Positions 1,901-63,802 are shown, numbered from the stretch's first letter. The stretch: 64,000 nucleotides of DNA from Octopus vulgaris (GCA_951406725.2 OX597825.1:53072001-53136000), one strand, 5' to 3'. Notes: generated by a model from the letters alone, not told the origin. Numbers and translations are program-made.

Positions 1901-2722
1901 AGGTTTTGAATTTCACCTAAGCGATCTTGATACATTATATACCAGTAATAGACTGTGGTAATTAAACCAACATTGCCAATTCCTTACAAGTTTGTGGCAT
2001 TTTGTCAATATTAGAAATCCTAATTCACTTTATTATTTATTGTTATTATATAGAATGGCAAATAAATTGATCTGAATTGAGGAATTGGAATTTTATAGCT
2101 ATAGAGAAAATTGTCTTAGAGAATACCATTAAAAATATGACAGAATTGGATACACAAGTCTTGTAGATAATGGAAAAATATATTCGATATAACAGAAATA
2201 GAGAAGAGGTGAAATATTTTGACATTGGGTTTTAGACATTTGGAATAGAAAGGAATAAGGATAAAAGGAAAGTATCCGTAAAAATTGAAATATTAGAGTA
2301 AAGGTTAAGAATCTCTAAATTCTGTTAAAGAACATTTGGAATTGAGTTAACATATCTTTAGCAAGTTACCAGGGAATGTTTCTCTGATGTTTGATATTTT
2401 AAGAATAGTAGAAACGAATAAAGTTAAAGAAAATAAAAATAAAAAAAACAACGACAAACAGACCTTCCAATACAAAACAAAATGAAACTTGCTTTCTCTT
2501 TTTATTACGTGAGAGAAAAATATTCATACGTTTTAAATGTCCTGACAAAGTGACAAGAGCTAAGTATGAAGGTCAAAATATCGCAAATAACGATATTTGG
2601 GGTTAAGATGGTTGCACGAGATAGAGATCAGCGTTGGAGGTGTGTATTTGTAAATTTCAATATTCTTTACTATTTAAGAAGCTACAGTGATTGGCAGATG
2701 TATTTTTGGAACTATAAAACTA

Positions 2723-2762
<40 letters not shown>

Positions 2763-3384
2763 ATGAATGTATGCATGTACGCATATACATGTATGGACAT
2801 ACATACATACACACATATATACATACATACATGTATAGGGATGGATGGATGGATACAAAGATTACTATAAGTTACAACAGCCAAACTGCTATATGTTACT
2901 GCACAGTTACTTGAAATAAGGATGTACTTTCGATTAGTTGAGTTTTGTATTAGCTGAAGGAGATTTCTAGCAATGTTAAGTTTCCTTCTTTTGCATAATG
3001 ACACAAAATACACTTAACTAAGGCCATAGAATTTACCTCGAGACTACTCTACCTCAGAGAAATAGTAACCAAATCTACTTTAATCCACACCATAATTTCA
3101 TAAACAAGGCTATCTTGGATACTAAATTCCAGGGTGTATTACAACTGAAAGTAGTAAATGGAACATCCACAGGTTGAAAATTTATCAACATCAAGCCGGT
3201 GAATCAGACTGACAAGTGTGATATATATTTACATACATACATACATACGTACATACAGACATACCTACATACACACACAAACATACATACAAACATACAT
3301 ACATATATGCATACATACATACGTACATATAAGTATGTATATATGTATTGTATAAAATTATGTATATATGTATTATGTATTATA

Positions 3385-3765
3385 TCGATACGGCTATGGA
3401 ACTCGACGAATGCACTTCACACTGTGTCTCTGGGAACATCTTGGAACACGTCCTTCACCTTGGCTTCTGACTCTCTACGTAGGTATACCAAGGAGCTGAA
3501 TCCTGTTGCCACCCATATGGCTTTCCAATAGCAACCTTCTCCAGCCAGGGCTTGACTACAATCTCCAACATTAGACCGAATTAAGCCTAAGGCTCTGTTC
3601 AAAATCGTGCTTGAGAAATCAAGAGGATTGACGGAGTCACAACGCCTGCTACATCCATTTTTACTGACCTTGGCTTCGTAGTCTCAGTTGCAGCTGACTG
3701 TGTTACATGTGACAGCCTTTACAGTATTCACTGAGTTATAATTACGGTATTTTGATACCCGGTTC
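3385..3765 (-). mobile_element. Tc1/mariner (DD37D/maT-like) transposase remnant with internal deletions
   Basis: Minus-strand translation gives 'MLEIVVKPWLEKVAIGKPYGWQQDSAPWYT' (second catalytic D, the QQD.AP.H motif), fused by deletion to C-terminal 'KVKDVFQDVPRDTV.SAFVEF'. Confidence 0.75.
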
Positions 3766-3958
3766 GAATCATCATGGTGTAGGTAACTTATTTCCAATAT
3801 TCAAACGGCTTCCAATTTCTCACGTCAGCTAAATTTTTCTCAAGTGCAACTATAATCTTTAATCTTTTCCAACACTGATGACTCTTCATTACAGCAAGCT
3901 CTTCTTGAAAAAGTGAATGAAAAAAAAAACACTTCAAATTTAGCCTAATCACCGTATA

Positions 3959-4466
3959 TATACATTATTTACGTTATTTACATTTAGCATATATTTGTTC
4001 TCATCTTGTTTGTTGTTAACACAACGTTTTGTTTGATATTCAGCTGAAATTTTGAAACTGGATTCTAATTCCTGAGGTATTATTCGATGTTGTTGTTGTT
4101 ATTATTATTATCATTATTATTATTATTCAGGTCACTGCCTGGAATCGAACTCGGAATCGTGGGGTTAGTAGCCCCCACTCTTAATCACTACGCCATATGT
4201 CCATGGAGTGAATTTTAGGGCTTATAAATCTAATATTTTCTATCCTTCCTTAATACCGGTTCCCATATGCTATTCATATCTGCCCTAGGTCTGCTCGGGA
4301 GGTAGTTGTGTCCTAGCATATGTGTTGCTTCTTTTAGTTTTTGCATTTTCCAGTGGTGTTCTCTGTCTATTATTTTAACTTCATCCCACAGGGAGAGGTG
4401 GTCTGCAGTTTTCCATACATGATCAGCTATACTCGATTTATTAATATCTCTTCGTGACATAGCTTT
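3959..4466 (-). mobile_element. Penelope-like element, inverted partial copy (endonuclease C-terminus plus pseudo-LTR)
   Basis: Reverse complement of about 4749-5250; ORF 4230..4460 (IADHVWK..HL.LWDEVKIIDREHHWK) duplicates the C-terminus of ORF 4465..4995. Confidence 0.9.
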
Positions 4467-4995
4467 GGTACCCCCAAAACATACTTTCCACTCCAGTTAT
4501 GACGAAAAGAGAGGATGTCGACCCTATGTGAAAGGCCTCTCTGAGAAGATACAAAAGATATGCGGCCCATATGGCATCAGGTCAGTATTCAAGACTAATA
4601 CAGCACTTTGCAAATATCTCCTTCGAGTAAAACCACCAACAGAAGAGAATATGACCAAAAACAGCGTGTACTCCATCCCATGGAGCTGTAGTAGTTTATA
4701 CAAAGGCGAAACATGCTGCCCCGTCAAAATAAGGGTAGAAGAACATCGCAAAGCTTTGACACGAGGAGATATTGATAAATCAGGTATAGCTGATCATGTA
4801 TGGAAAAACAGGGATCACCTTTCCCTGTGGGATGAAGTTAAAATAATAGACAGAGAACACCACTGGAAAATACGAAAACTAAAAAAAAACGCACATATGC
4901 TAGGACACAACAACGTCCTAAGCAGACCTAGTGCAGAAATGAATAGCATATGGGAACCAGTATTAAGGAAGGATAGGAAAATATTAAATGTATAA
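4465..4995 (+). pseudogene. Penelope-type GIY-YIG endonuclease domain (degraded)
   Basis: 'PYVKGLSEKI...VFKT...NSVYSIPWSCSSLYKGETCCPVKIRVEEH...IADHVW...WDEVKII' matches the PLE pattern PY..G.SE / VY.IPC.C...YIGET.R.L..R..EH; substitutions at conserved C and R positions indicate decay. Confidence 0.9.
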
Positions 4996-5024
4996 GCCCT
5001 AAAATTCACTCCATAATTGCCCAC

Positions 5025-5097
5025 GGGCATATGGTGCAGTGGTTAAGAACGCGGGCTACTAACCCCAAGATTCCGAGTTCGATTCCAGGCAGTGACC
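5025..5097 (+). promoter_or_regulatory. tRNA-derived Pol III-type head inside the PLE 3' region (not a functional tRNA)
   Basis: A-box TGGTGCAGTGG (5032-5042), GGG-CTACTAA-CCC anticodon-like arm, B-box GAGTTCGATTCC (5075-5086); acceptor and T stems pair only partially. Second copy at 4130-4202 on the minus strand. Confidence 0.8.
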
Positions 5098-5154
5098 TGA
5101 ATAATAACATCGAAAAATACCTTAGGAATGAGAACCTAGGTTCGAAATTTCTTC

Positions 5155-5203
5155 AAGAAACCTGATGAAGGCTGGAGGGTTATATCAGCTGAAACGTTGT
5201 TAA
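5155..5203 (+). ncRNA. minimal type-I hammerhead ribozyme motif in the PLE pseudo-LTR
   Basis: CTGATGA (5162-5168), one extra A, stem II GGCTGG/TCAGCT, GAAA (5191-5194), palindromic AACGTT giving a loop-less stem III with a GUU cleavage triplet, short stem I AAC/GTT. Minimal dimerising hammerheads are an established feature of PLE pseudo-LTRs. Confidence 0.7.
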
Positions 5204-8200
5204 CAACAACATGAGGACAAATATCCGTTAAATGTAAATAATGTGCATAATTACTCGTCTCTTAAATATAGAACTGCCCCCTATATATATATATAATATT
5301 ATCGTGTATTTTACAATCCATTTGATAAAAATTAACTCTAATACAACCCTACTAAACACACCACGTTCTACCAACCCTCTATCTCATTGAACACCAGCAG
5401 GTTAATCCGGCAAATATCCCATCGATATCTTACTAATTCTAGGAACGATTCTTAGATATATTTCAGATTCATTTTTTTAGTTGTGGGTTTTGCTACGCCA
5501 TAGGCTTAATCAAACAGAGATCAGGTTAAATTATCCAGAATGATCATCCTATCGGTTATTCAGATATAGTATATCAACGATTACGTAACCCATTGTGTTC
5601 TTTTTTTAAAAAACAGATTATTAATATCAGCCAGCAGGCTCGAACTCGGAACTAATTTGCGTGCAATAATCATCGTTGATGTCACAATTATGTCTTCACT
5701 CTTTACTATTTAGACAACTTCAGAATCAAGGAGAAGTCTTTATAACGTGCGCGAATAAACACTCGCGCACTCATATACAAATGCATACTCAGAAAAAAGA
5801 GTCACAAGTTTACAGAAAATTGCCATATATATATTCCCGTATATTGAAAGAATTCCAACTTTTTCTTAAGGAATCTTTAATAGAATTGACAATATTCTAA
5901 AATTCGTCAGATATATTTTACTTCAAAAATACACTCTGAAACTTTCCGCACCAATCTATGTTTTAACTCGGCATAAAACAATTTGGTCAACTGGTGTAAA
6001 GAGTTACTTAAATCAAATTGTTGAAAGATGCTGTACATACACAGACACACACACATAAATCACACATCCAAAATCACACATATATATACATCATGCCATT
6101 ATCTACTGAACTTTGGTTTTGATTTTAGTTCCAAAGAGACAGGAAAATGAAGAGAAAAAACATGATTGAAGAAAAAGAAGTGACAAATAAAATGCATTAA
6201 ACTGAGAGAACAAAGGAAAGTTAACAAGGAAGAATGAAGCAAAAAAGTTTTTTAAACTACAACAAATAGCAACAACAGCAGCAATAATAATAATAATGAA
6301 AATAATATCAACAACAAGAACAATGGCAATCATAGCAATAATAAAATTTATGATATACGTAAAAAATAAGAAAATAAGATGTGTGGTTTGAACCTGCGTG
6401 AAAAGAGTAAATAAAGGAATTGCTTTTCTTTTTTATTTAGATAGGAATCAATTGTAAAACAAACAGAAAATGAATGAAACAAAGGAAGGTAAGAAGGAAG
6501 GATGAAACAAAATGAAAGAAAGGAGAGAATGCGGATTCAAAGACATAATGAAAGGGAAAATGTAAAAATTGTGAGAACGATAAAAAGAGAGGGAGGGAGG
6601 GAAGGGGAGTGAGAGAGACGGGGAGTATGAGGAAAAGTTGAATGATTTGATGTATTAATTTAATTGACAAACATTGTCAACAGTGTTTAAAAGATAACAT
6701 CAACAACAACAACAGCAAGGTCGGCCACAAGTTCAACAAAAACAAGGACAATAATTACAGCAACAACAAATGCGACGAATAATATCGACAACAACAACTT
6801 TGTTAGTATATGTGAGCTTCATTGAATCCAAGCATAGTATCTTTTCAGAGCTTATTAATATTCATACCCACTTGAAATGTGTAAATCAAGAAATAATCAA
6901 TTTGCTTTGTAACAATGCACTTATAACAACTGGGTTCAAAGAGAAGGTCACCTATGAGCCTAGCCAGGACACCACCGGAAAATCGAGGTGCTTGAATGCT
7001 ATTGGATTTGAACTCCTTTCATCAACCACTGCTATGTGTAATGTAGGTAAGGTCGCTTTATACTCAGTAGACAGATATTTCTCACAAAAGCTTAAATACA
7101 GAAAATTGCTCAATTGACTTACACTTAAAAATCAGATATAGTCATATACTTTAGATGAAGCAAATTATATCCCGACCCCAATCCTGCTGGTGAGACTAGA
7201 TATTCCTGCTGGAAATCTAGCATGTTTGCTGAATGGATCATATAACATCGAGGCCATCATTTTAGACTCACAAATAGGTAATTCAGAATAACTACCTGAA
7301 CGAATTTATATTGACCGAACGATCATCCAAGTGAAGATTTCAGAATTTCTGCTTAATTCAGAAATATCGAAGACCAGACTGATATGAAACTCGCAACCTT
7401 TATGAAACATTTAAAAGAGAATGGCATAGCGTTCAGCAAGGACTAGAAGACCGCTACAAATTATACGTATCTGTTTCCAAGACATGCAACATGTACATTG
7501 CAGCAAAGAGTCATAATTCTAAGGGAAAGTGATAGATTCATAACTTAATGCCAAAATAAAGTATTTAAATTTCAGCATATAAGTGAAAATTCACACTTAG
7601 ACATTGGACTTGCCCAATATGCAGTTTTGATCTTTCTGAAGTAAACTTCCCGCACGACAGTCTTTTAGCTCAAAATAGATCTAAATTTATTTTATGTATT
7701 TTGAATGTCATTTTATTTTTTCCCCCTAAATTAGTTCTCTAAATCCTCCCGGAAATTCGAGTATTTCCTGAAATTTCTTATTCTCTCATCTCTTCCTTTT
7801 CCGCTCCCGATTTCCCTCCGTCACTCACCTCTCCCTCCTCTCTCTTATAACCATGTATCCCACTCTTCCTCTCTTCCTCACTTTCTTTATTAATTCTTCC
7901 TGTACGAAAGTGTATGTATGTGGCTTGCATATTAACGTTTCACCAGAGGTCATGTGCATTATCGCCAATCTACGAATTATCAGCAGCAACTACAGCAAAT
8001 GCAACATCAAACTCAACACATCACCATCATCACCATCTCAGCATCATTCTGTAGCACTTTAATTACCAATACTACCACGACTATAAATATTAATCCCTCA
8101 TATAAATACCATCGATAAAACAATCATCATAACTACCATAACATCCTTTGTCCCCCCCCCACTAACCATCTCTCCCACCACCAAATAACACTATTCCCCA

Positions 8201-63554: not shown

Positions 63555-63726
63555 CAGTTCTATATTTGAGAGATGAGGAATTATGTACATTATTTACATT
63601 TGACGGACATTTGTCCTCATCTTGTTTGTTGTTAACACAATGTTTCAGTTGATATACCCTCCATACTTCATGAGGTGACTTGGGGAAATTTCGAACCTGG
63701 GTTCTCATTCCTAAGGTATTTTTCGA

Positions 63727-63757
<31 letters not shown>

Positions 63758-63802
63758 GTTATTATTATTATTATTCAGGTCACTGCCTGGAATCGAACTT
63801 GG
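63555..63802 (-). mobile_element. short copy of the PLE 3' module (partial tRNA head, (AAT)n, decayed hammerhead)
   Basis: Reverse complement aligns with 5073-5276 and ends at the same terminus; the hammerhead core is mutated (CTCATGA; GAAACATT). Confidence 0.88.

Follow-up and report, generated by a model that had tools for sequence, protein, structure and literature searches.

A tRNA-derived head with A and B boxes as a candidate promoter of a coding Penelope-like element in Octopus vulgaris

Does a tRNA-like unit that lies between the endonuclease stop codon and the hammerhead ribozyme of a Penelope-like element (PLE) belong to that element, and could it start the element's RNA? The question is raised by a 64-kb window of Octopus vulgaris DNA (the window being the whole stretch analysed, in which positions are written with a "w"), which was compared with a genome of 2.8 Gb in 227 contigs. 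Positions w4468-5276 are the 3' end of a Penelope/Poseidon-type retrotransposon, inserted as a 5'-truncated copy. The features of this insertion and of a second short copy are as follows, in window positions:

3964..4467, minus strand: inverted head-to-head arm of the same insertion, with a tRNA unit at 4130-4202 and a damaged hammerhead near 4020-4060
4468..4995, plus strand: 3' part of the PLE ORF, comprising the RT-EN linker and the GIY-YIG endonuclease (EN), with a TAA stop at 4993-4995
4989..4996, plus strand: TATA-like element overlapping the stop codon, part of which is retained in the window copy
5018..5029, plus strand: putative RNA start at 5018/5019 and a 5-bp hairpin, the fold-back site of many cDNAs
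5025..5098, plus strand: tRNA-derived head with A box at 5032-5042, B box at 5076-5086 and eroded stems
5100..5108, plus strand: (AAT)n tract, which differs in length between copies and is the second common 5' junction site
5128..5276, plus strand: start of the ORF (ATG at 5128), repeated in the 3' pseudo-LTR (pLTR) and containing the "second B box" at 5139
5156..5203, plus strand: minimal type I hammerhead, with core 5162-5168, an extra A, stem II and GAAAC-GUU
5245..5276, plus strand: optional Penelope "tail"; copies end at ~5242-5251 or at 5276
63555..63802, minus strand: second short copy; besides tail, hammerhead and (AAT)n it keeps just the end of the tRNA unit

The stop codon, tRNA unit, (AAT)n tract, B-box-like GGTTCGAAAT at 5139, hammerhead core at 5162 and 3' end at 5276 all lie where an initial annotation of this DNA had placed them, and its report of the tRNA unit in the inverted arm, and of the unit's last part in the copy at 63555-63802, also holds. 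Positions 4120-4467 of the inverted arm match w4749-5107 with 87% identity. The 5' end of the short copy (w63802-64000) shows a small fold-back and adjoins a long (AAT)/(AAC) microsatellite.

By its motifs and layout, the element appears to fit the Penelope/Poseidon group of EN+ PLEs. A protein search with the end of the window ORF listed at least 150 matches among 4,657 candidates. This ORF end aligns with the C-terminus of a protein bearing PF01541 (P0069; 33% identity, E 8e-25), while Pfam gave only unrelated, sub-threshold matches to the window EN fragment and a PDB sequence search with it gave none. In a sister copy (L211), a frame of 569 aa contains motifs of RT and GIY-YIG; the RVT_1 match, at 27.7 bits, is slightly below the cut-off of 29.6. 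Inspected by eye, the L211 translation has a CCHH motif in the endonuclease and an RT-EN linker without an extra Zn-finger, the features that define Penelope/Poseidon in the available text of PMC8557442. As a yardstick we used a column-majority sequence of 2,822 nt built from 69 natural stretches, in which 835 codons can be read without a stop from the ATG at w5128, forming a single ORF with RT and C-terminal GIY-YIG; in the natural copies L249 and L254 this frame is open over all 100 codons examined. The pLTRs occur in partial tandem (pLTR-ORF-pLTR in L222 and L430) and inverted arrangement, with head-to-head arms at 31 of 60 loci (some of them overlapping), and copies have two 3' end clusters. 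No shared precise deletion that would mark a pLTR intron was seen in the copies inspected by eye. Copies are ~5% diverged at non-CpG sites, and the family therefore looks old, although younger copies may exist outside the samples. No relative of the element was found in viral contigs.

Several copies depart from this layout. Four (L426-L428 and L432) run from the pLTR through 0.5-0.85 kb of ORF, where they break off or pass abruptly into another pLTR, which suggests further internal RT start sites or template switches. Five of the 29 copies anchored at the ORF start (L236, L243, L245, L247 and L248) share a near-identical 5' junction at ~w5219-5221, 3' of the hammerhead.

Since the majority frame is open from the ATG at 5128, both the "second B box" and the hammerhead fall within the first 25 codons. 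The motif at 5139, in which the initial annotation had seen a second B box, corresponds to codons 4-7 and was rejected as a promoter element. The hammerhead, by contrast with that motif, is what it was said to be, the minimal type I motif of PLEs: it has CUGANGA, an extra nucleotide, G10.1-C11.1, stem II, GAAA, a palindromic 15.2-16.2 and a short stem I, the architecture described in the part of PMC4209133 available to us, and its core is common to the family and 13 outside PLEs. Profiled by column over 147 arms, the core shows 93-99% conservation, except for CpG sites, the cut-site base (83%) and position 7, the one tolerant core position (equivalent to w5165-5166), with T in 83% and A in 16%. 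Solo copies show this polymorphism as linked ones do, an indication that there were at least two source elements and that both kept the core. The core is intact in 37 of the 147 arms and the stems are perfect in 7. The window hammerhead, with a predicted cut after GUU 5196-5198, is degenerate, its G10.1-C11.1 pair being G-U and the 3' strand of stem I having a deletion. The Rfam hammerhead models, proposed earlier as a check, returned no match.

The tRNA unit is a constant component of the family. At 29 of 29 other EN-anchored loci examined, similarity continues past the stop codon into the unit, to at least w5079, with internal deletions in this region at some of them; a unit missing from most copies, the outcome that the initial annotation had regarded as fatal to its proposal, was not seen. 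The A and B boxes fit the consensus we assumed for matching and lie 44 nt apart, the stems having decayed, and the pair at 5025-5098 is the only one matched in the 64-kb window (mean 0 in 100 shuffles). Against the genome's own tRNAs, the unit scores 57 and 63, with shuffle maxima of 41.5 and 47.5 (57 vs 41.5 for the window copy, 300 shuffles), and its top match among 35 tRNAs tested is tRNA-Arg(TCT), with 51 identities over 74 nt. ARAGORN detected no tRNA in the window and, at a lowered threshold, called some copies tRNA-Ser amid spurious calls; Rfam gave no tRNA match at the unit, and its folding was no better than that of shuffles.

In 60 random 10-kb stretches (L031-L090) there are at least three further SINE families with tRNA heads, abundant, each with a body of its own and only weakly similar to the head of the PLE; they are probably the known octopus SINEs. 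Heads of other SINEs score at most 15 bits against the PLE head, and no closely similar free SINE head was found in these 600 kb of random sequence. A copy of the element was present in 4 of the 60 stretches, in none of them with the endonuclease part. At another locus (L186), several tRNA-Cys-like genes are clustered within 3 kb.

The 5' pile-up of copies that the initial annotation predicted at the tRNA start was found. The set comprised 98 arms with the tRNA unit; their loci had been selected by 3' motifs, by a motif within the unit or at random, and a few short chance matches that belonged to other SINEs were dropped. Sixty-two arms end at 5017-5032 (19 of them at 5017-5019), 30 further inside and 6 upstream; among 30 loci picked by the exact internal tRNA 20-mer alone, 23 end at 5018-5032 and 3 upstream. 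A second junction hotspot, the (AAT)n tract, accounts for 10 of 30 arms anchored 3' of the hammerhead. Genome-wide counts of exact motifs step up across the same boundary, from 877 at w4837 and 919 at w4999 to 4,941 at w5028, followed by 3,917 at w5053, 7,482 at w5120 and 11,919 3' of the cut. Motif survival is equal at w4999 (18/57) and w5028 (20/61), and dividing the counts by survival in sampled copies gives rough totals of ~2,900 spacer arms, ~15,000 A-box arms and ~38,000 copies of the 3' part. The boundary lies 13-14 nt before the A box, a plausible distance for a Pol III start, and this position, together with boxes that have been kept while the stems decayed, argues for transcription from the head.

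The boundary also coincides with the 5-bp hairpin at 5018-5029 (w4470-5276 contains just one other of this kind), and of the 19 arms that end at 5017-5019, 14 are fold-backs, with element sequence in inverted orientation immediately upstream. The pile-up could thus be an artefact of reverse transcription, with cDNA priming itself on the hairpin wherever the RNA had started; self-priming palindromes have been described in PLEs (PMC3846280, in the portion available). We consider this very unlikely, because arms without a fold-back show the same step (21 vs 5), the other hairpin, at 5132, coincides with only ~3 of 30 arm ends, and self-priming leaves the scarcity of T runs described below unaccounted for.

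A further feature of the boundary is the TATA-like box, the commonest word in 49 of 90 spacer-bearing arms, ~28 nt upstream of the boundary of short copies. Its position fits either polymerase, a box at -28 suiting Pol II as well as Pol III. The element could alternatively be transcribed by Pol II from a TATA-type pLTR promoter near 5019, with the tRNA unit an old SINE head carried as a passenger in the 5' UTR. Translation would then be readily explained, and characterised PLEs start inside the pLTR, from a LINE-like internal promoter, according to the accessible parts of PMC2377424 and PMC8557442. Such a reading needs a coincidence for intact A and B boxes to stand 13 nt behind the start, and the random 600 kb yielded no closely similar free SINE head.

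It also has to face the distribution of T runs, which are terminators for Pol III when four or more residues long (T4). The sense strand of the 2,822-nt majority sequence has no run of at least four T and 32 such runs of A. For the ORF, a synonymous shuffle predicts 2.9 T4 (P=0.028) and a null with unbiased Phe codons 4.5 (P=0.004), while whole-string Markov nulls of orders 0, 1 and 2 give P=0.003, 0.066 and 0.21, and the depletion is thus a modest and suggestive signal. In natural copies, which have decayed, T4 occur at 0.38 per kb and are mostly private, compared with 2.2 per kb in 13 T-matched outside PLE ORFs and 2.7 per kb (34 in 12.5 kb) in eight other RT-type ORFs of the genome. At L037, L042, L073 and L074, in random stretches, open RT-type frames of other retroelements, as long as 1,146 aa, served as controls. 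Outside PLE ORFs contain at least two T4 in 39 of 40 cases, with 399 observed in total against 364 expected; 39 of 79 control loci without an ORF of at least 450 aa were left out. No PLE control was found within the genome: when it was searched with a distant PLE protein, each of the 30 best loci proved to belong to the tRNA-headed family.

Upstream of the hammerhead the difference is similar: 19 of 22 outside PLE hammerheads (some of them near-duplicates, and after dropping 3 of 25 hammerhead-like matches inside ORFs) have a T4 within 140 nt upstream, whereas the family has none, and an A and B box pair was found in 0 of 32 control post-stop stretches, 11 of which have a hammerhead. Transcription by Pol II leaves the missing T-rich tract unexplained. 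Against a reading of these data in terms of Pol III, T4 are also lacking from the ~2.1-kb ORF (2106-4244) of L287, the closest outside relative (48%), which has no head; its pLTR (4245-4560) is T-rich, with a hammerhead and without an A/B pair. A second relative (L289, 45%) likewise has none over 1,128 nt; L288 has 16 T4 in 990 nt. The absence of T4 may thus be partly inherited in a sub-lineage, and the T4-free ORF of L287, in the absence of a head, speaks for Pol II. Taking both sides together, we regard a Pol II start with a passenger head as unlikely, though less so than self-priming on the hairpin.

How the short copies arise bears on the same question. The thousands of short tRNA-headed copies expected by the initial annotation do exist, and at the level of the head short arms outnumber ORF-linked ones by ~5 to 1, with none of 30 arms anchored 3' of the hammerhead being EN-linked. 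The 3' ends of copies cluster at ~ORF +119 to +130 and at +150, with none at +70. These two sites agree with the two internal RT starts that were obtained in vitro, with uncut RNA as the substrate, for the anole PLE PAc in the part of PMC11167929 available to us. Only 1 of 30 arms anchored 3' of the cut begins near it and no aligned arm ends there; cleaved RNA was accordingly rejected as the template, and the hammerhead does not appear to set the ends of copies, their templates having presumably been uncut RNA. With no T4 terminator in the pLTR and no ends at the cut, the discrete RNA of 175-250 nt that had been envisaged is not borne out.

The abundance of short arms would fit an independent SINE or retrozyme whose solo copies are transcribed by Pol III and moved in trans, with Pol II transcribing the autonomous element; this view is close to that of the initial annotation, and non-autonomous PLE derivatives are known from the literature available in part. 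A comparison of 102 solo tRNA-start arms with 55 EN-linked arms speaks against it. Both sets share the same polymorphisms and a divergence of 4.5-5.8% (a small sample), no solo-specific variant was found between them, and the sole column at p<0.01 is enriched in linked copies. In this small sample, the separate non-autonomous lineage that characterises a SINE is therefore lacking, and an independent solo lineage was rejected on the grounds of common variants and age, even though the element has the tRNA-derived A/B-box head at its 5' boundary that is typical of SINEs. Solo copies lack the TATA-like box and the ORF beyond the tail, ending short of the nt 172 up to which the anole PLE needs ORF sequence in the available text of PMC11167929. 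Nor do they resemble retrozymes, which are tandem repeats with a hammerhead per unit: the sampled loci are mostly solo copies or inverted pairs, with one direct pair (L029) and no tandem monomer arrays. An independent SINE or retrozyme is thus highly improbable, and the best reading of the short arms is that they are cDNAs started early on source RNAs shared with ORF-bearing copies.

What remains of the earlier proposal of a Pol III promoter captured by Penelope is the fixed head, the 5' pile-up and the type of hammerhead, without the second B box, the discrete RNA and the SINE lineage; the head may serve as promoter for the whole autonomous element, which is broader than what had been proposed. 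Judging from sequence, a captured tRNA-type Pol III promoter probably starts the element RNA, and internal RT starts on it probably yield either short SINE-like or long copies. Pol III would start at 5018/5019, ~6-7 nt before the tRNA head, possibly aided by the TATA-like box that the preceding unit carries at the end of its ORF, and, meeting no T4 terminator, could read on through the hammerhead, the 2.5-kb ORF and the pLTR that follows. The RT/endonuclease would start cDNA internally, ~120-150 nt into the ORF; from the first start site ~260 nt would be copied back to the RNA start, giving the abundant SINE-like arms, which would often fold back into head-to-head pairs, while a start at the downstream pLTR would give ORF-bearing copies. 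The protein is perhaps translated from Pol II read-through RNA.

A stronger version can be put forward only tentatively: the full 2.8-kb genomic RNA would be a Pol III transcript, the element having captured a tRNA promoter and lost all T-run terminators of its ORF, with its SINE-like offspring as strong-stop-like cDNAs. One arm (L255) has its 5' end at the start of the tRNA unit and continues into the ORF, in keeping with transcription from the head, but it is the only one of the 102 tRNA-start arms to do so and stops ~0.5 kb in, and no complete copy starting exactly at 5018 was seen among the sampled copies. Four contig sets from four organisms cover head, hammerhead and ORF; they attest the presence of these parts but carry no information on starts, strand or level. 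Transcripts of Pol III have no cap, which is a difficulty for a coding element. Autonomous elements have moreover been argued to need Pol II, an expectation stated for LTR elements in the accessible part of PMC10886601.

The PLE, its pLTR, the tail and the minimal hammerhead are textbook; the tRNA head in a coding PLE may be new. According to the available parts of the reports on PAc of Anolis (PMC11167929) and Penelope of D. virilis (PMC2377424), these elements share with the one described here a single ORF with RT and C-terminal GIY-YIG, a pLTR that overlaps the ORF start with a minimal hammerhead near the start codon (the PAc ORF starts within the hammerhead; PMC11167929), an optional tail of 30-40 nt, head-to-head arms and partial tandems. 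The D. virilis pLTR differs in having a LINE-like internal promoter and an intron (PMC2377424), and the octopus element differs from these PLEs in the tRNA-derived A/B-box head at the copy boundary, the lack of a T-rich tract and the lack of T4 on the sense strand. The TRIMp3 elements Helenus, Ajax and Cassandra likewise have a small-RNA-derived Pol III promoter in the terminal repeat, but are described in the accessible text of PMC10886601 as non-autonomous true-LTR elements with PBS and PPT, whereas here the head belongs to an autonomous, ORF-bearing element with PLE pLTRs. In Schistosoma, SM-alpha and Sj-alpha also combine a Pol III-type promoter with a following type I hammerhead; in what is available of PMC6765202, they are non-coding tandem repeats from which cleavage releases monomers, unlike the pLTR of a coding PLE whose copies do not end at the cut.

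Non-LTR retrozymes (PMC7761336; bioRxiv 10.64898/2026.07.22.740005) are, as far as these sources could be consulted, likewise short non-coding hammerhead units related to PLE pLTRs, but form tandem repeats rather than solo copies and inverted pairs with a tRNA head; the terms "tRNA" and "Pol III" are absent from the available part of the preprint. The octopus SINEs OK, OR1 and OR2 have tRNA-derived heads as well, and are known to us from descriptions rather than sequence. OR1 and OR2 reportedly have Arg-like tRNA heads. They are classed as CORE-SINEs in the partial text available. The remark in the initial annotation that the arrangement is undescribed agrees with the literature in the portions available, including PMC8490949, PMC8967140, PMC3531059, PMC4758252, PMC4824008 and PMC13282606, where no tRNA head in a coding PLE is mentioned, although Repbase/Dfam may hold an annotation.

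The normal products of Pol III are short non-coding RNAs. Its promoters are found in SINEs and non-autonomous TRIMs, and, to our knowledge, an autonomous retrotransposon is usually assumed to depend on Pol II or, for R2, on read-through by Pol I. A coding PLE on a tRNA promoter would, if true, break the Pol II rule for autonomous retrotransposons, and one would have to ask how an RNA that lacks a cap and has a ribozyme in its first 25 codons is translated; the element offers a test case for the role of the PLE hammerhead. SINE-like repeats can arise from a PLE without a separate SINE lineage, and the ~15,000 tRNA-headed arms of this genome may be mis-annotated as SINEs or tRNA pseudogenes.
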